Assembly: GCA_942490925.1 (NCBI GenBank)
Contig: CALNYX010000017.1
Location: 1,281,159-1,345,158 of the forward strand
DNA from: an uncultured Chlamydiaceae bacterium
GTDB taxonomy: Bacteria; Chlamydiota; Chlamydiia; Chlamydiales; JAAKFR01
Direction: 5' to 3'
Length of the DNA: 64,000 nt
Shown piece after piece: positions 6,234-12,554 of the stretch. Below the pieces are notes generated by a model that saw nothing but the letters and a program-made list of their open reading frames with translations, was not told the DNA's origin and searched no databases. Numbering within the stretch: position 1 is the first letter of the stretch; the number at the start of each line of letters is the position of its first letter. The translations under genes were made by a program, and so were the position numbers.

Positions 6234-7471
6234 AATTTCACTTTGAGCGATTGCTTAAATAATTTCAGTGTTTTTTCTCGTGCTTCAGCATGATCGACAA
6301 TTGGATCGACTGGCTCATGATTTGTATATTCGGGACACCATGTGCGGATATAAATGCCTTCTGGATCAAATTTCTTTCCCTGTGTCACAGGGTTAAATAT
6401 TCTAAAATAGGGAGCAGCATCAGCGCCGCAACCGGCAACCCATTGCCAATTTGCTCCGTTATTTGCTCTGTCGGCATCGACTAAATGTTTCCAAAACCAC
6501 TTCTCTCCCTCCCTCCAATCAATAAGCAGATCTTTGATCAAAAATGAAGCTACGATCATCCGCACACGATTATGCATCCAACCTGTATGTTTCAACTCTC
6601 GCATTCCTGCATCGACAATGGGATAACCTGTTTTTCCCTCTTGCCAAGCATGTAAAGCGGCTTGATTTTTCTCCCATGGAATTTTTTTATAGCGCTCATT
6701 TAGAGGCTCTGTTTGAAGCTTTGGAAAGCGAGAGAAGAGATGATAACAGAATTCGCGCCACCCAATTTCTGAGAGGAAACTGGCTGCTGATTTTCCAGAA
6801 ACAGCACGCCAAATTTGCCTAGGGCCAACCTCTCCAAAGTGAAGATGAGCTGAGAGTCGTGAAGTTCCCTCTTGCATTGGGAAATCGCGCGCACTTTGAT
6901 ATGAAGCGAGTTTTTTGCTGACAAATTGCTTCAATCGTTTTTGCGCTTCTTGCTCACCAGGTTGCCAAAATGAGTCAAAAAGAGGGTCGGGAGCGACTGC
7001 CTTGGGCAATGGGTCTGAGCGCACTTTAATCAAAGTTGCGATGTTCGGTTTAGGAAGAGACTTTGGAATTTCTATTGTCTGTAAAGCCTTCTTCCAAAAA
7101 GGGGTGAAGACTAAATAGGGTTTTTCCATTTCATATGGCTCTAGTAAAAGTGAGCCATTATAGGAAAAGATCTCAAGACCTGGAATCTTCAATTCTTTGT
7201 CATTATTGAGATAGAGACGAGTGATCTTGTGCTCTTTAGCAAGTTGCTTGATGACTGTTTTGGCTTCACCAGAGCGGTAGCAGAGTTTATCTTGTATAGA
7301 GCTTAAAAAACTCTTCAGACTCTGGCTAACCCACCATTTTTGAGAAGGACCTAGTGTCTTATCTTCAATGTAAAGCGCAATAACAGCCTGATTTTCTTTT
7401 GCTGCAAAGTAGAGAGCTGGATTGTCTTGAAGTCGTAGATCGTTTCTGAGTAAAACAATTGCACGCGTCAT
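6230..7471 (-). CDS. phrB: Deoxyribodipyrimidine photolyase / cryptochrome family protein (short, 413 aa)
   Basis: N-terminus LRNDLRLQDNPAL. FAD-binding motifs TGYPIVDAGMRELKHTGWMHNRVRMIVASFL and GANWQWVAGCGADAAPYFRIFNP. Confidence 0.88.
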   Translation of the reverse strand: MTRAIVLLRNDLRLQDNPALYFAAKENQAVIALYIEDKTLGPSQKWWVSQSLKSFLSSIQDKLCYRSGEAKTVIKQLAKEHKITRLYLNNDKELKIPGLEIFSYNGSLLLEPYEMEKPYLVFTPFWKKALQTIEIPKSLPKPNIATLIKVRSDPLPKAVAPDPLFDSFWQPGEQEAQKRLKQFVSKKLASYQSARDFPMQEGTSRLSAHLHFGEVGPRQIWRAVSGKSAASFLSEIGWREFCYHLFSRFPKLQTEPLNERYKKIPWEKNQAALHAWQEGKTGYPIVDAGMRELKHTGWMHNRVRMIVASFLIKDLLIDWREGEKWFWKHLVDADRANNGANWQWVAGCGADAAPYFRIFNPVTQGKKFDPEGIYIRTWCPEYTNHEPVDPIVDHAEAREKTLKLFKQSLKVKL

Positions 7472-8859
7472 ATCGCAATCTCTTTTACCAACCCCTTAAA
7501 AATCAAGCGATGAATTGGGAGTAACATATACCAATAGAGATATCCAAAAATACCTTTGGGTCGAAAACCAACTGTTTGCACAATTTCAGCTTCCTTAACT
7601 TCGAAATCAAGCCATGCTTCACCAGGGATACGCATTTCGGCATAAAGAGTCAATTTTTCTGGGCCTACTGCTACGACACGCCAAAAATCGAGAGCATCTC
7701 CAACATGTAGCTCTGTTGGATGGCTTCTGCCACGTCGCAGACCAACGCCCCCACATAACTTGTCGATAAAACCCCGAAAGCTCCAAGCCCAATTCATCGA
7801 ATACCAACCAGAATACCCTCCAATAGAGAAAAGTCGCGCTAAAGTTGCTTCCTTATCAGTAAATGGGGCTTTATAGACCTCTTTGATACAACCGCGCTCT
7901 GGCAATTCGTGGTAGGGTGAAAGGTCTGGTAATAGCTTACTCATGACAATTGCGTCTTTCCAGCTCGAGAAAACTTCACTCTCCTCATTACGCTTTAGCG
8001 CACGTCTAATTGCCTCTTCATAGGACATACATGTGTGCGGCAGAACTGTTTCAATTTTATGATCCAAGCAGACGGCTTCACTTCTCAAGCTATCTACAAG
8101 TGAACTTGCAAGGGCAAAATTCGTTGCTGTGACAAAGTAAAGCCAGTAGGAGCTAAGTCGAGGAGTCAACACTGGAACAGTTAAAATAAAGCGTTTGAGC
8201 TCTCTCTCATGTGCTAGTTTTAACATCATCTGCTTATAGGTTAAACAGTCAGGTCCTCCTATATCGAAGGTGTGATCAAAACACTCTTTGTTAAGTAGCG
8301 CTGCTTGTAGGTAGTAGAGCACATCATAAATGGCGATAGGCTGACATCTGTTGTTGATCCACTTGGGAGCAACCATTGCTGGCAAATGTTCAACGAGATC
8401 ATAGACGATCTCAAAACTTGCACTTCCAGAACCAATTACAATACCTGCGCGGAAAATAGTGCACGGAATTGGGCTTTTCTTAAAAATCTCTTCGACATTA
8501 TGACGGGATAAGAAATGCTTTGAGAGGCTTTTTCCTGTTGTCAACGCTGAAAGATAGAGGATTTGTTTCACATTTGTTTGCTTCAACAGGTCAACAAATC
8601 GCTTAGCACACCGTTTTTCTTGCTCCAAAAAATCTTCTTTGGACGAACTCATGCTATGCACGAGATAGTAAACTGCATCAATCTCTTTTGGAAGTGCCTT
8701 GAGTGTATGAAGATCCCCTTGCAAAATTTCGACTTCTTTGGGGAGTTTTAAACGCGTCTGACTGCGTACTAGTGCAATGACATGGTGTCCAGCTGCAAGG
8801 AGAATTGGAATTAAACGTGTTCCAATGTAGCCATTTGCACCAGTAACAAGCACTCTCAT
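7468..8859 (-). CDS. NAD(P)H-binding SDR-family protein with a C-terminal DUF2867-like domain
   Basis: MRVLVTGANGYIGTRLIPILLAAGHHV Rossmann fold plus a ~150-aa C-terminal extension of DUF2867 type. It has 4-nt ATGA overlaps with both neighbours. Confidence 0.72.
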   Translation of the reverse strand: MRVLVTGANGYIGTRLIPILLAAGHHVIALVRSQTRLKLPKEVEILQGDLHTLKALPKEIDAVYYLVHSMSSSKEDFLEQEKRCAKRFVDLLKQTNVKQILYLSALTTGKSLSKHFLSRHNVEEIFKKSPIPCTIFRAGIVIGSGSASFEIVYDLVEHLPAMVAPKWINNRCQPIAIYDVLYYLQAALLNKECFDHTFDIGGPDCLTYKQMMLKLAHERELKRFILTVPVLTPRLSSYWLYFVTATNFALASSLVDSLRSEAVCLDHKIETVLPHTCMSYEEAIRRALKRNEESEVFSSWKDAIVMSKLLPDLSPYHELPERGCIKEVYKAPFTDKEATLARLFSIGGYSGWYSMNWAWSFRGFIDKLCGGVGLRRGRSHPTELHVGDALDFWRVVAVGPEKLTLYAEMRIPGEAWLDFEVKEAEIVQTVGFRPKGIFGYLYWYMLLPIHRLIFKGLVKEIAI

Positions 8860-9818
8860 TCGGGTTGGTATCCCACTTTTGGAACGATTAGAACTGTTTG
8901 GACTGAATCCAAGTTTTTGACAACTGCTGCTGCGTCAATTTCATAGGAGTAGGCTCCCTCGCGCAGAGGGTAGACTTTTGTGACTTCTGCAACTTTAAGG
9001 CCAACTGGAAAAACACCATCCATTCCCGTGGTGACGAGGAGATCTCCCTCTTGAATAATCGGCATCGCTGTCAGTGGAGAGCTTTCATCAAGTGGCTTAC
9101 CTGTACGTAACTCACGTGCTGGTCCAAAACTGTCTGCAAAATCGTAGTTGAAGCCAAGGCCGCGTATGCTCTGAGTGCGATTACGCCATAGGGGCGCTCC
9201 CGCTCCTTGAATCACTCCTTTTGCTAAATACCATGCAGCAGCATCACCTACGTATTCTTGGCGTAACCTTTCAAGCACTTTTTGATCTTCAGAAGATTTT
9301 ACGCAGCTCAGCAAGGCATCAATATGTTCGATAAAGGTTGCGCTTTGCGGTCGTCCTCGGACAGCGCGTACTGAAGGCTTAAGCCCCATGTCAGTGATCA
9401 AGCGAATGCGCGACTGTCTTTTCCCGACGTAGTCAACGATTCCAACGACTGCATTGCCCACGAGTACTGGACTATTCTGATCAATAATTCCACGCCCATT
9501 TTCACTTCCAACATCGACCCAAAAACCACTCATCCAACTGCTAGGATCGCGATAGATTACATGGGCTGGCAATACATTTTCTTGTTGAACCAACTCGCCC
9601 ATGTTCAATAAACCGCGCAATTTTCCAATTTCAATGCGCAGTAGGTGATTTTCAGCTTCGAGCTTCTGGACTTGAGAATGTTCAGCGTGACTTTTCCATA
9701 CAGGGGAAAAAAGTGCGATGAGCCGAACGCGCCCTTTTTCAACCATCCAAAGTGGAAGACTCAAAAGTAAAAAGAGGGCGCCTGCAAGCAATAAATACTT
9801 TCGATAGGCCTTTTTCAT
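8856..9818 (-). CDS. mreC: Rod shape-determining protein MreC
   Basis: N-terminal TM segment, coiled coil (LEAENHLLRIEIGKLRGLL) and a C-terminal GDLLVTTGMDGVFPVGLKVAEV motif. Positioned downstream of aspC. Confidence 0.75.
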   Translation of the reverse strand: MKKAYRKYLLLAGALFLLLSLPLWMVEKGRVRLIALFSPVWKSHAEHSQVQKLEAENHLLRIEIGKLRGLLNMGELVQQENVLPAHVIYRDPSSWMSGFWVDVGSENGRGIIDQNSPVLVGNAVVGIVDYVGKRQSRIRLITDMGLKPSVRAVRGRPQSATFIEHIDALLSCVKSSEDQKVLERLRQEYVGDAAAWYLAKGVIQGAGAPLWRNRTQSIRGLGFNYDFADSFGPARELRTGKPLDESSPLTAMPIIQEGDLLVTTGMDGVFPVGLKVAEVTKVYPLREGAYSYEIDAAAVVKNLDSVQTVLIVPKVGYQPE

Positions 9819-9832
9819 GCAGAGCTTTTTTT

Positions 9833-9993
9833 GAAACCTTTGATTAATGCCGGCCTTGGATCTTTCAGCACAATTTGCACCAGAGCGTCATTTTTGCCCT
9901 CTCTAACCCACAAGGGGTTAGCTTCGGCCTTCAAATTTAGCTCTAACGCAAATTTCACTAAAATCTCCAAAACCCTCATTAATCAGAGGCTTC
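9833..9993 (-). repeat. Copy C (reverse orientation) of a ~160-nt imperfect-palindrome repeat family
   Basis: The reverse complement aligns over its full length with 33944-34104 and 54763-54922, sharing core blocks such as ctaaccc-ttgt-gggttag, aatgacg and ctaaattt. The arms gaaacctttgattaatg (9833-9849) and cattaatcagaggcttc (9977-9993) are complementary. The flanks are TTTT/TTTT. Confidence 0.8.
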
Positions 9994-11131
9994 TTTTAAT
10001 CGCTGTTACAAGACTTTCTACAGCTTTTGCATTCACTCCTGCAACATTAATCCGTCCATCTTGTGGCAAATAAATCGCATACTCTTCACGCAATCGATCT
10101 ACTTGTTTTGCACTCAGGCCGATATAGGAAAACATCCCGCACTGTTTTTCTAAAAATGTGGCTCCAAGCTGCTCCATCAAAAGCATACGCATCTGTGAAA
10201 TGCGCTCTCTCATCGATGTGAGCTCTGCAAGCCACTGCTCTTTTAACTGCGGATTCATCAAAATGAGTTTGACAACGCGTGCTCCATGACATGGGGGATT
10301 TGAATAAATACCGCGAATGATCACTTTGATCTGACTTCCCACTTCTGCAAGATGAAGTCCACACGCCACAAAAAGAGCGCCTGTCCTTTCAGCATAAAGC
10401 CCAAAAGATTTCGAATGTGAAACACAAACTGCAAACTGCATCCCCTCTTGTAAAAAGAGGCGGATTGCAAAAGCATCCTCAGTGACGCCATGCCCAAATC
10501 CTTGGTAAGCAAAATCAAATAGGATGAAGAGCTCTTTCTCTTTCACTTTTTGACAGATCTTTTCCCATTCGGCTACTGATGGATCACACCCTGTTGGATT
10601 GTGACAGGCCGGCTGTAACAAGAGTACGCTACCTCGCTCCATCGTGTTGATTGCCTGAATTGTTTTCTCCAAATCAAAACTGCGCGTCTCAGCATTATAG
10701 TAAGGGAAAGTTTCTGTTGTAAAGCCAGCATGGGTAAAGATACGTTCATGATTGTCCCACGTGGGATTGGAAACATAGAGCTTTGTAAAGCCGCTTTTCC
10801 TCAAAAACTCTGCGCAGATACGTAAAGCGCCTGTTCCACCAACAGTTTGAGTCCCATAGACAGCAGCCTCCGTTCCAAAGACGAGCTTGTTGGTCTCGCG
10901 CACATAGTCGGGATCTCCGTCGATTGGGAGATAGTCTTTGCTCTTTTCATCTCGTAAAAGAGCCTCTTCCGCTTTTTTTACGCTCGCAAAAAGATGGGGC
11001 TTAAGCTCATCTGTTTTATAGGTCCCAACCCCAGCATTGATCTTCTCTGGGCGGGTTTCCTCTTTAAAGGCAATATTGAGCCCTAATATTGGGTCTCTAG
11101 GGGCTAAAGAAATCTCTTCAAAAAAATCCAT
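9983..11131 (-). CDS. aspC: Aspartate/aromatic amino acid aminotransferase (class I)
   Basis: PRDPILGL...INAGVGTYK N-terminus, NPTGCDP, and SHSKSFGLYAERTGAL containing the PLP lysine. Confidence 0.9.
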   Translation of the reverse strand: MDFFEEISLAPRDPILGLNIAFKEETRPEKINAGVGTYKTDELKPHLFASVKKAEEALLRDEKSKDYLPIDGDPDYVRETNKLVFGTEAAVYGTQTVGGTGALRICAEFLRKSGFTKLYVSNPTWDNHERIFTHAGFTTETFPYYNAETRSFDLEKTIQAINTMERGSVLLLQPACHNPTGCDPSVAEWEKICQKVKEKELFILFDFAYQGFGHGVTEDAFAIRLFLQEGMQFAVCVSHSKSFGLYAERTGALFVACGLHLAEVGSQIKVIIRGIYSNPPCHGARVVKLILMNPQLKEQWLAELTSMRERISQMRMLLMEQLGATFLEKQCGMFSYIGLSAKQVDRLREEYAIYLPQDGRINVAGVNAKAVESLVTAIKRSL

Positions 11132-11201: not shown

Positions 11202-11274
11202 GGGGCGTTAGCTCAGTTGGTAGAGCGCAACAATGGCATTGTTGAGGTCAACGGTTCGACTCCGTTACGCTCCA
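11202..11274 (+). tRNA. tRNA-Ala (anticodon GGC)
   Basis: Hand-folded cloverleaf. Acceptor GGGGCGT/ACGCTCC has the G3:U70 alanine identity pair. Anticodon arm is CAACA-AT[GGC]AT-TGTTG, the T-loop is GGTTCGACTCC, and the discriminator is A. CCA is not encoded. Confidence 0.93.
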
Positions 11275-11324
11275 AAAAATCATTTACATTTCTTCTCTTT
11301 CTTTCCTATAGTATAATGATTGCC

Positions 11325-12554
11325 ATGAATAAGCGTTTTTTTTCCAATTTGCTCATTTTTGCTGCCATGGGAGTCGGTCTACTCACTGGGTGGATCAATA
11401 TTTCTTTTTTGAATCAGACGGCTCAGGTAACCTCTGATATTTTCCTCCGCCTCCTACAAATGATCAGTCTTCCTCTGATTTTCTTAGCGGTCGCCTCGAC
11501 TATTTCTGGAATGCGTGATTTTTCAGAGATCAAGCGGATGGGACGAAAAGTTCTCACTTATACGTTAGGGACAACGATCGCTGCAGCGACAATTGCGCTC
11601 ATTTTATTTCTAGTGATCTCTCCAGCAGGGCCAGCAGGTCATGTCAGTGGAGACATTGCTCCAGTTACGCGCCCGGAAGGCTCCTATCTCTCATTTGCTC
11701 TCAATATCGTCCCTTCAAATGTGATCACTGCTTTTGCTGAAGGTAACGTCATTGGTATTGTCTTTATGTCTCTTATCTTGAGTATTTCGACTCTCTTTCT
11801 GCCTTCAGAGCAAAAGGAGTTTTTGAACAAGCTTTTCTCTAGCTTGTTTGCTGCGATGCTCAAAATCACTGGGTTTATCATCAAGTTGATGCCACTGGCT
11901 GTTTGGGCTTTTGTGACGCTTTTGTTCAATGAGCTCAACCAAAACTATGCCCACTTCAACAGCCTCATTCTCTATCTTGTCTGTGTCATCAGCGCAAACC
12001 TGATTCAAGGGATTATAGTTCTTCCAATCATGTTGAAGGTAAAAGGGATCTCTCCATGGAAAGCTTTTAGAGCAATGAGTCCAGCATTGAGCATGGCCTT
12101 TTTCTCAAAATCCTCTAACGCTGCACTTCCAATCACAATGGAGTCGATTGAGAAAAATGCTGGCGTCTCTAAGAAAGTCTCGAGCTTCTCATTGCCACTC
12201 TGCTCTGTTGTGAACATGAATGGTTGTGCCGCTTTTATTTTGATCTCCACGCTCTTTGTTGCTTCATTGCATGGCATGACGTTTGGCACTCTGGACTATA
12301 TTGGCTGGATTTTCTTCGCAACACTTGCTGCTGTTGGAAACGCCGGTGTCCCAATGGGATGTTTCTTCCTCACAAGCGCTTTTCTTGTTGGAATGGATGT
12401 TCCGCTGATGATGATGGGATTGATTCTTCCTTTCTACGCCGTGATCGATATGGTCGAAACAGCTCTCAATGTCTGGTCTGACTCATGTGTCACCATGTCT
12501 ATCGATAAGGACTTGGTGTCTCAAGAAGACGCACTACCGATAGAAAGCGCCTAG
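11325..12554 (+). CDS. Dicarboxylate/amino acid:cation symporter (DAACS; GltP/SstT-like)
   Basis: Polytopic protein with DAACS-type motifs (SLPLIFLAV, VVNMNGCAAF, AAVGNAGVPMG). The ORF track start at 11217 overlaps tRNA-Ala, so the start was moved to ATG 11325 (MNKRFF); ATG 11316 is also possible. Confidence 0.85.
   Translation: MNKRFFSNLLIFAAMGVGLLTGWINISFLNQTAQVTSDIFLRLLQMISLPLIFLAVASTISGMRDFSEIKRMGRKVLTYTLGTTIAAATIALILFLVISPAGPAGHVSGDIAPVTRPEGSYLSFALNIVPSNVITAFAEGNVIGIVFMSLILSISTLFLPSEQKEFLNKLFSSLFAAMLKITGFIIKLMPLAVWAFVTLLFNELNQNYAHFNSLILYLVCVISANLIQGIIVLPIMLKVKGISPWKAFRAMSPALSMAFFSKSSNAALPITMESIEKNAGVSKKVSSFSLPLCSVVNMNGCAAFILISTLFVASLHGMTFGTLDYIGWIFFATLAAVGNAGVPMGCFFLTSAFLVGMDVPLMMMGLILPFYAVIDMVETALNVWSDSCVTMSIDKDLVSQEDALPIESA

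Follow-up and report, generated by a model that had tools for sequence, protein, structure and literature searches.

How should we understand a palindrome that, in an uncultured Chlamydiaceae bacterium, lies between an aminotransferase gene (here called aspC) and mreC, supplies the stop codon of the first gene and ends just short of the start codon of the second? MreB-based division is established in Chlamydiae, and the host bacterium divides without FtsZ. A sequence-only reading of the window, by which we mean the whole stretch of 64,000 nt analysed here, had named the palindrome copy C of a repeat with two further copies, A and B, and had suggested that it could serve as a processing, attenuation or translation-control point for a cell-shape/division gene. 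The other possibility that we weigh here is that copy C is simply a member of a mobile family. MITE-like elements in Chlamydiae are described neither in the 2024 review of MITEs (PMC10969869) nor in the other literature that we found, and the Waddlia genome paper counted only repeats of more than 200 bp.

Results

Anatomy of the junction

The features of the junction are collected in Table 1. Copy C matches the family profile over model positions 1-161 with 156 bits (nhmmer) and the covariance model R1 with 173 bits. Its placement at the aspC-mreC junction, the coordinates given earlier for both the element and the stop, and its inverted orientation relative to A and B all proved correct. The aspC product is a class I/II aminotransferase (Pfam Aminotran_1_2, E = 3e-68) that matches the NCBIfam model PRK09257, 'aromatic amino acid transaminase', with 457 bits. 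Its C-terminus now reads ...IKRSL-TGA, the last three codons and the stop coming from the first 11 nt of the element, as the earlier reading of an element arm that encodes (R)SL and the stop had it. At the other arm, likewise as had been read, the foot of the hairpin lies close to the mreC ATG, at a distance of 14 nt, and the mreC start is backed by homologues that align from residue 2. Both this leader and the mreC AUG are unpaired in the centroid fold. A Shine-Dalgarno core is absent from the 14-nt leader; such a core precedes about 32% of the genes of this genome, against 13% of random 14-mers.

At present aspC and mreC are spaced by 164 nt. The aspC frame continues through the element because 161 + 4 = 165 nt, and the resulting 54-codon open reading frame, whose TGA is the ancestral stop of aspC, has no Pfam match. 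The two downstream junctions are 4-nt overlaps, between mreC and an NmrA-DUF2867 gene at 8856-8859 and between the latter and a photolyase gene at 7468-7471, making aspC-mreC the single break in a chain of four genes.

Table 1. Features of the aspC-mreC junction and the other copies of the element in the window
Feature	Coordinates	Strand	Basis or remark
Copy C, full-length 161-nt palindromic MITE-like element	9833..9993	minus (sense strand)	nhmmer, covariance model, RNA fold
Aminotransferase gene ('aspC'), aromatic/aspartate, 382 aa	9983..11131	minus	Pfam Aminotran_1_2, NCBIfam PRK09257
aspC stop TGA, element positions 9-11 of copy C	9983..9985	minus	read from sequence
mreC, 320 aa, intact (ATG at 9818)	8856..9818	minus	Pfam MreC, NCBIfam PRK14872
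A-rich leader AAAAAAAGCUCUGC, 14 nt, from hairpin foot to mreC AUG	9819..9832	minus	centroid fold and Shine-Dalgarno check
Target-site duplication AAAA, 5' side of copy C	9994..9997	minus	read from sequence
Target-site duplication AAAA, 3' side of copy C, within a run of seven A	9829..9832	minus	sequence
54-codon ORF in the aspC frame	9815..9979	minus	ATG 3 nt past the aspC stop; TGA overlaps the mreC ATG (ATGA)
Apical core of the element GAAGGCCGAAGCTAACCCCTTGTGGGTTAGAGAGGGCAAAA, conserved across the order	9891..9932	minus	column identity across 24 genomes
Copy A, other subfamily than C	33944..34104	plus	
Copy B, other subfamily than C	54763..54922	plus	

Membership, subfamily and fold of copy C

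Against a profile made only from A and B, C reaches 80.3 bits (E = 1e-23) and the best of 1000 dinucleotide shuffles 5.5 bits; the alignment of C to A and B thus withstands the shuffled-sequence control. The profile of the remaining 26 full copies scores C at 150.7 bits. The family consists of two subfamilies, with A and B in one and C in the other, and C is 68% identical to A and B, 92.5% identical to the copy at C17:1574842 and 90.1% identical to that at C17:895618. The statement that C is the most diverged copy is true of the three copies in the window and does not extend to the genome, where C lies near the consensus, comes fifth when 27 copies are ranked by their mean identity to the rest, and belongs to the top scorers against the family models. 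C looked diverged, and shows the compensatory substitutions that had been attributed to it, because it belongs to the other subfamily: 12 base pairs relative to A and 14 relative to B are changed on both sides with pairing kept.

The minus-strand RNA of copy C folds into a single rod of about 59 predicted base pairs (-80.3 kcal/mol, z = -10.4), and the opposite strand folds at -55.4 kcal/mol. The ends of the element, GAAGCCTCTGAWTAATG and CATTWWTCAGAGGYTTC, complement each other, and pairing extends over its whole length; the sense strand of C holds seven G.U and one A.C. Copies A and B fold like C.

A MITE-like family

Iterated nhmmer found 42 family matches in the 2.29-Mb genome; 28 are full length, and every one of the 42 lies on the 1.8-Mb contig C17. 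An exact 4-bp target duplication flanks 12 of the 28 full copies where mismatched flank pairs would give 0.74, and none of 20,000 permutations reached 12; duplication lengths of 2, 3, 5 and 6 gave no signal in the same copies. The duplicated 4-mers are AT-rich (TTAT, TTTA, TTAA, TAAA and others) and in this genome are not strictly YTAR. The ends of the element, GGAACCTCTGAATAAT, are identical at 11 of 16 positions to the E. coli IS5 end GGAAGGTGCGAATAAG, and IS5 makes 4-bp target duplications. The element carries no transposase gene, the open reading frames within its 161 nt are without Pfam match, and deletion derivatives of 26-62 nt are present in the genome. Small size without a transposase, terminal inverted repeats, a duplication of fixed length, dispersed copies and presence/absence differences between relatives are all found together, as in MITEs, and the family is a MITE-like mobile element, one more of a known kind, deserving its own description.

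An autonomous partner with matching ends was not found in this genome (G000) or in the relatives G006 and G019, draft assemblies being liable to lose insertion-sequence copies, and no DUF772 domain turned up in this search. Additional matches to the element terminus outside the full copies include short deletion derivatives, and none of them ends a longer element. The sole multicopy DDE_Tnp_1 insertion sequence of the genome, 1149 bp long and present in four copies, was rejected as the mobiliser, being IS903-like with a 9-bp duplication and different ends (GACTGTGTTTCAAAAG); transposase fragments on contigs C47 and C61 were set aside since their ends do not match. A REPIN or REP system mobilised by a RAYT is ruled out by the target duplications and by the absence of the Y1 transposase (PF01797) from G000, G006 and G019.

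Copies relative to genes

Nineteen of the 28 full copies lie at tandem junctions, seven between divergent genes and two between convergent ones, and at tandem junctions the orientation shows no preference (9 sense and 7 antisense to transcription). At 8 of the 28 full copies, neighbouring genes have their stop within the element or right at its border, which makes nine such gene ends in all. The TGA at positions 9-11 serves four of them; in two the stop is a T|GA that straddles the border, and in the other three it falls in the duplicated 4-mer. Besides aspC, the TGA at positions 9-11 therefore ends three further genes, each with a gene-to-element gap of -11. About eleven copies end at most 25 nt before a downstream start codon, taking the start of the longest open reading frame, and the copy at C17:895618 fills nearly the whole gap between two divergent genes, 15 and 7 nt from the two starts. 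The donation of a stop and the position just before a start are a habit of the family in a tightly packed genome, not a peculiarity of aspC-mreC.

The junction before the insertion

Removal of the element with one AAAA yields ...GCG ATT AAA AAA AGC TCT GCA TGA, in which the TGA overlaps the mreC ATG (ATGA) and the reconstructed aminotransferase ends in ...IKKSSA. Overlaps of 4 nt are common here (170 of 1098 tandem gene pairs). The C-terminal change amounts to four residues, and the tail to which they belong differs between relatives both in length and in sequence. Of ten family relatives, nine have aspC and mreC side by side and overlapping or nearly abutting, with an overlap of 20 nt in four, 26 nt in one and 1 nt in three, and a 10-nt gap in one; in the tenth, G006, a 416-aa opposite-strand open reading frame lies between them. 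None of the ten carries the element at this junction, which is what the comparison proposed by the sequence-only reading brings out. An empty site in a close relative was not found, the nearest MreC among 5.8 billion proteins being 63% identical, and a search for related loci in genome contigs returned only proteins of 43-45% identity from other phyla. The MreC homologues are annotated as Chlamydiales. From synteny at the family level and the target duplication, which as AAAA within a run of A carries little information, we infer that the insertion broke a translationally coupled aspC-mreC junction in which stop and start overlapped.

Conservation across the order and drift of resident copies

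The hairpin is conserved among the copies of this genome: 94.1% of the pair cells are paired where shuffles give 82.7%, both sides have changed in 36 of 59 pairs, and with the partner slid by 1-3 columns only 36-51% are paired. Using the covariance model, full-length relatives were found in at least 28 of 200 genomes of the order, in at least 21 of 127 genera and at least 15 families, all of which are minima as few candidates per genome were scored; the genus of 1.0-1.2-Mb genomes, probably Chlamydia, gave no matches. When 24 genomes are compared, compensatory change is seen in 51 of 52 pairs. Mean column identity in these genomes is 0.73 in the centre and 0.54 in the arms, a difference to which ascertainment may contribute, the model having been made from one genome. 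The conserved centre reads GATTTT ... GGAGATCGA-GCTAACC-loop-GGTTAGC-GAGATCGA ... AAAAGAT, while the termini differ completely between lineages, the reverse of the textbook MITE. The termini fall into three classes or more, and the duplication differs from class to class. Where the ends are GGAA/GGAG...TGAATAA, it is 4 bp long and AT-rich; where they are TACCATT, it is a 3-bp TTA or TAA in about 17 of 22 copies, as judged by eye; and a class in G194 with TGCTCTGTCAAC ends has CTAG on its flanks. The flanks of related copies in G006 read CTAA, TTAG or TTAA.

The fate of copies once resident can be followed in G171 and G123, two species of another genus, which have four orthologous insertions in common, with flanks 90-96.6% identical, and do not share their other sites. 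The orthologous elements are 98.1, 97.0, 91.3 and 87.6% identical. Over the four loci, 6.6% of paired and 6.4% of unpaired positions have changed, and single changes break a pair 13 times and keep it 12 times. Four double compensations all fall at one locus, where one of the partners has lost 26 kcal/mol. On this small sample, four loci from a different genus, resident copies appear to change at about the pace of the DNA around them, which argues against constraint at the level of the host and makes it less likely a priori that copy C is kept for the sake of mreC. Selection acting while the element propagates, perhaps together with conversion between its copies, is the best explanation for the conserved hairpin.

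Strand asymmetry

The two strands of the element are not equivalent. The sense strand is rich in G+T, and G.U is about five times as frequent as A.C mismatches (163 vs 34 within the genome; 117 vs 40 in other genomes). In 34 of the 42 copies the sense strand lies on the C-rich strand of the replichore (binomial p 7e-5), with GC skew switching near 485 kb and 1350 kb of C17, and in G006 the same rule is obeyed by 28 of 29 copies at loci with |skew| > 0.05. The labels 'leading' and 'lagging' follow the skew convention alone, two dnaA genes lying away from the extremes of GC skew. In asymmetric palindromes the more stable hairpin is preferentially lost from the lagging-strand template, and by analogy such loss may be an alternative source of the bias. 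Orientation relative to replication is also known to be biased in several families of DDE insertion sequences, including an IS5 subgroup (PMC3971601). Copy C is among the eight exceptions, although not much should be read into this.

Signals at the junction

A consensus scan of 9600-10200 found no promoter-like site, and the one terminator-like site in that interval (9666-9685, plus strand) lies inside mreC and outside the element, so that no predicted signal would interrupt a transcript running from aspC into mreC. In the window, Rfam 15 gives no match at the gathering threshold, and between 9780 and 10030 none at E <= 1. Of the roles once suggested for the element, attenuation fails on these grounds: the hairpin is followed by a run of A, not of U, and the terminator scan shows nothing at the element. 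An intrinsic terminator or attenuator is rejected on the same evidence, the rod being followed by AAAAAAAGC.

Discussion

We propose a model for the aspC-mreC junction in which copy C is, with high probability, an ordinary mobile-element insertion into a coupled junction, without a dedicated role in the control of mreC. Environmental chlamydiae would harbour an old mobile element, palindromic and non-coding, with IS5-like ends, of which copy C is one resident copy; the enzyme that mobilises the element is presumably not encoded in this assembly. Together with the duplicated AAAA (165 nt, 55 codons), the element would have entered a run of A 11 nt before the original aminotransferase stop, which would then have overlapped the mreC start as ATGA. 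The TGA of the element would have replaced this stop, turning ...IKKSSA into ...IKRSL. A co-transcript of the two genes would carry a rod of -80 kcal/mol, uncoupling the translation of mreC from that of aspC, and this rod may plausibly be a substrate for RNase III or a barrier to 3' exonucleases, as for Correia and ERIC. Translation of mreC would start from the unpaired A-rich leader or by re-initiation after the in-frame 54-codon open reading frame. Copy C would not have been selected for the regulation of mreC, and its hairpin would be kept since the element needs pairing to propagate.

This model retains part of what had been claimed for the junction. The rod-like structure of about 160 nt predicted upstream of mreC stands, as a rod of 161 nt ending 14 nt before the AUG, provided that aspC and mreC are co-transcribed. 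The idea of a control point divides: a dedicated function is at odds with an element that sits at about 42 sites in both orientations and is missing from the junctions of relatives, while a regulatory effect of copy C on mreC is plausible by analogy with Correia and ERIC. We infer, in addition, that the coupling of mreC to aspC has been lost or altered.

The element resembles several known systems. ERIC is said, in the 1991 description by Hulton et al., to have a conserved central inverted repeat, as the chlamydial element has. The two have further traits in common: each is an imperfectly palindromic sequence (127 to about 160 nt) whose fold is a single long hairpin, each occurs throughout an order or family in numbers that vary widely from genome to genome, and each is found within transcription units at the ends of genes, in both orientations. 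An ERIC copy at a gene's 3' end has a reported effect on mRNA decay (PMC10969869). The host phylum is different, however, and the chlamydial element has 4-bp duplications (3-bp TWA or CTAG in its other classes) and termini that have turned over fully between genera; a blastn search of 5,426 E. coli genomes for ERIC homology gave no match at E <= 0.01. In Correia elements, 26-bp terminal repeats enclose an interior that is not palindromic, the duplication is TA, and there are an IHF site and outward promoters; the chlamydial element is hairpin throughout, has a 4-bp duplication and shows no detected promoter. As to how copy C might affect the aspC-mreC message, the best parallel is nevertheless Correia/NEMIS of Neisseria, a co-transcribed MITE whose repeats are cleaved by RNase III in the mRNA, with changed expression of flanking genes (PMC10969869). 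The element is like the IS5 family in its 4-bp duplication, in ends that resemble those of IS5 at 11 of 16 positions and, in sister classes, in CTAG/YTAR-like targets, although there is no IS5-group transposase with these ends and the core is conserved under changing termini. Such a core is not what is expected from the internal deletion of one insertion sequence.

Two further comparisons concern insertions of similar size. The bcr1 element of the Bacillus cereus group, about 155 nt long, has short AT-rich duplications, is transcribed and has a predicted stable structure with compensatory changes; the likeness is one of description, and the host is of an unrelated phylum. To our knowledge, Rickettsia palindromic elements (RPEs) have no clear target duplications. 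Like copy C, which is an in-frame insertion of 165 nt within coding sequence, RPEs are palindromes of about 150 nt, found in an obligate intracellular lineage, that enter genes in frame (PMC10969869). They are, however, read through as protein with a conserved peptide, whereas the TGA of copy C ends the protein after three codons. A translated insert of the RPE type is ruled out by the stop at positions 9-11 and by the lack of any frame conserved across genera; a protein-coding element in general is rejected too, its open frames (sense frame 3 and antisense frame 2) being confined to the lineage of this genome and unconserved across genera.

Could the rod nevertheless have been co-opted as a cis-regulatory RNA, kept to set the dosage of MreC through processing by RNase III or RNase E, differential stability of the cistrons or occlusion of the mreC initiation region? 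The G.U-bearing sense strand is indeed the mRNA strand, which folds far more stably than its complement (-80.3 vs -55.4 kcal/mol), the hairpin foot falls within the ribosome footprint of the mreC AUG, and the genome encodes RNase III (rnc). Precedents exist in the RNase III cleavage of Correia and in the RNase E site exposed by ERIC at gene 3' ends in Yersinia (PMC10969869), and the place of C among only 8 of 42 copies in the disfavoured replication orientation could hint at retention by selection. Against this, the element occurs at about 42 sites without preferred orientation to transcription, no relative has it at aspC-mreC, orthologous resident copies in another genus drift like their flanks, and no Rfam family matches even at E <= 1; furthermore, mreC can be expressed without aspC, as the opposite-strand gene that splits the two in G006 indicates. 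We consider co-option unlikely. That the element acts instead on transcription, by providing mreC with an outward promoter or aspC with a terminator, is the least credible of the readings and very improbable. Sigma-70-type promoters are carried by Correia and several other MITEs (PMC10969869) and some copies, such as that at C17:895618, nearly fill divergent gaps, but promoter-like sites are missing from 9600-10200, the lone terminator-like site is outside the element, and the rod is followed on the mRNA strand by AAAAAAA in place of a U-run.

A translational relay would explain the tolerance of the insertion in another way: ribosomes would re-initiate at the AUG 3 nt past the aspC TGA, read the 54 codons, melting the hairpin on the way, and stop at the ATGA of mreC, so that coupling is preserved. 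The geometry is exact, with TGA-TTA-ATG at 9985-9977 and the TGA of the open reading frame at 9817-9815 overlapping the mreC ATG at 9818-9816, the insertion of 165 nt is in frame, and mreC, ancestrally expressed by overlap, has no Shine-Dalgarno core. Only about a third of the genes here have such a core anyway, however, and the ATG (element positions 15-17) and the open frame were inherited with the element: the frame is open after the TGA in 13 of 28 copies, the chance of an open frame given a sense, frame-3 insertion is roughly 46%, the frame is closed in other genera, and the stop-donating copy at C17:1487625 has a second stop at element position 141. The 54-codon open reading frame is an incidental product of the in-frame 165-nt insertion, and we hold a relay to be quite improbable. 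A broader reading, which we also regard as unlikely, is that the family is a mobile hairpin defined by its structure and not by its ends, possibly co-opted at this site as an intercistronic processing or relay device that doses a division protein. It fits the apical core of about 45 nt conserved across the order, the changing outer stem and duplication (4-bp AT-rich, 3-bp TWA, CTAG), and a single functional strand, tolerant of G.U/G.T, on the C-rich strand of each replichore. If true, it would suggest that the element passes through a single-stranded intermediate of DNA or RNA, or that different transposases exploit a factor that binds the core.

Taking copy C as an ordinary insertion, the locus is a cleanly reconstructable natural experiment, in which a coupled junction before a cell-shape/division gene has been broken by a selfish hairpin. 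With the stop, the re-start codon, the in-frame open reading frame and the ATGA all defined by the geometry of the junction, the consequences are testable by simple reporters. The elements also matter for annotation, as they create spurious open reading frames of 75-95 aa and shift predicted gene ends. Finally, a family present in at least 21 genera, with a conserved core, arms that change fast but always stay complementary, and a strong bias in orientation relative to replication, offers a system for what keeps palindromic repeats foldable.

Orientation and distribution of the element

The orientation of the 161-nt palindromic element is biased relative to replication. Contig C17, which carries all 42 copies in the source assembly and includes the window as C17:1281159-1345158, has GC-skew switches at about 485 kb and 1350 kb. 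Over the whole length of this contig the G+T-rich sense strand coincides with the replichore's C-rich strand in 34 of the 42 copies (p = 7e-5). The copy between aspC and mreC is among the eight exceptions. The same rule is obeyed in G006, another genome of the order, by 28 of the 29 copies that lie in loci with strong skew. Across the 65 other contigs of the source assembly (484 kb), where about nine copies would be expected by length, none was found. As the tandem repeat (AACCCTAATCACT)n, which resembles a telomere, also stands at the start of one of these, C32, some of the small contigs may derive from a host or another organism.

G006 (1.6 Mb) is dense in the element: sampling of roughly 300 kb in the neighbourhood of known matches (loci L055-L071) gave 58 copies, many of them head-to-tail pairs spaced by 11-13 nt with a CTAA between that is common to both. 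Among ten relatives it is the only one in which aspC and mreC are not adjacent; an opposite-strand ORF of 416 aa lies between them.

Genes and insertion sequences beside individual copies

Locations of the features are collected in the table. At one divergent gap of C17 the element with its duplication (165 nt) occupies all except 18 nt, ending 15 and 7 nt from the longest-ORF starts of two divergent long ORFs; either the true gene starts lie further in or the promoters must lie within the element. Several ORFs of 75-95 aa are owed solely to the stop-free antisense frame of the element, which is open in 18 of 28 copies in this genome, and are likely to be spurious gene calls in annotations. 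The IS903-like insertion sequence (1149 bp) is present in four nearly identical copies, with ends GACTGTGTTTCAAAAG, 9-bp duplications and a 302-aa DDE transposase as product; a truncated copy of the element lies about 100 nt from one of them. On the strand opposite to aspC, at a distance of 70 nt from its start, a tRNA gene shares sequence with the first codons of a dicarboxylate symporter as called from the longest ORF; the true start of the symporter must lie further downstream.

Locations of the element copies and neighbouring features
Feature	Location	Strand
Element copy, aspC-mreC	window 9833-9993	-
tRNA gene	window 11202-11274	+
Dicarboxylate symporter, longest ORF	window 11217..12554	
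Divergent gap holding an element copy	C17:895603-895785	
Truncated element	C17:1511959-1512046	
IS903-like copies	C17 688 kb, 1378 kb, 1512 kb (beside truncated element), 1738 kb	
Element-derived ORFs	C17:573752-573985, 1627293-1627574, 1726413-1726697, 357589-357813	
Telomere-like repeat	C32:1-120	
Locus with the 416-aa ORF (L040)	G006:C15:56350-58150	

Conservation of the core and its terminal classes

The family is order-wide: 28 or more of 200 genomes, from at least 21 genera, contain it. In an alignment of loci from 20 genomes of the order (A4; L072-L091) the apical core is conserved and the outer stems are wholly turned over but still complementary, with compensatory change at 51 of 52 pairs. 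MITEs usually show the opposite pattern, with conserved ends around a variable interior. Within genus g98 (loci L092-L131; G171, G123, G194, G263 and others), one common core is found with three terminal classes, each with a different target duplication: TACCATT with a 3-bp TTA or TAA, TGCTCTGTCAAC with CTAG flanks, and GGAACC/GGAGAT with a 4-bp AT-rich duplication. That the same core is joined to three sets of termini with different target duplications suggests that more than one transposition system has moved it.
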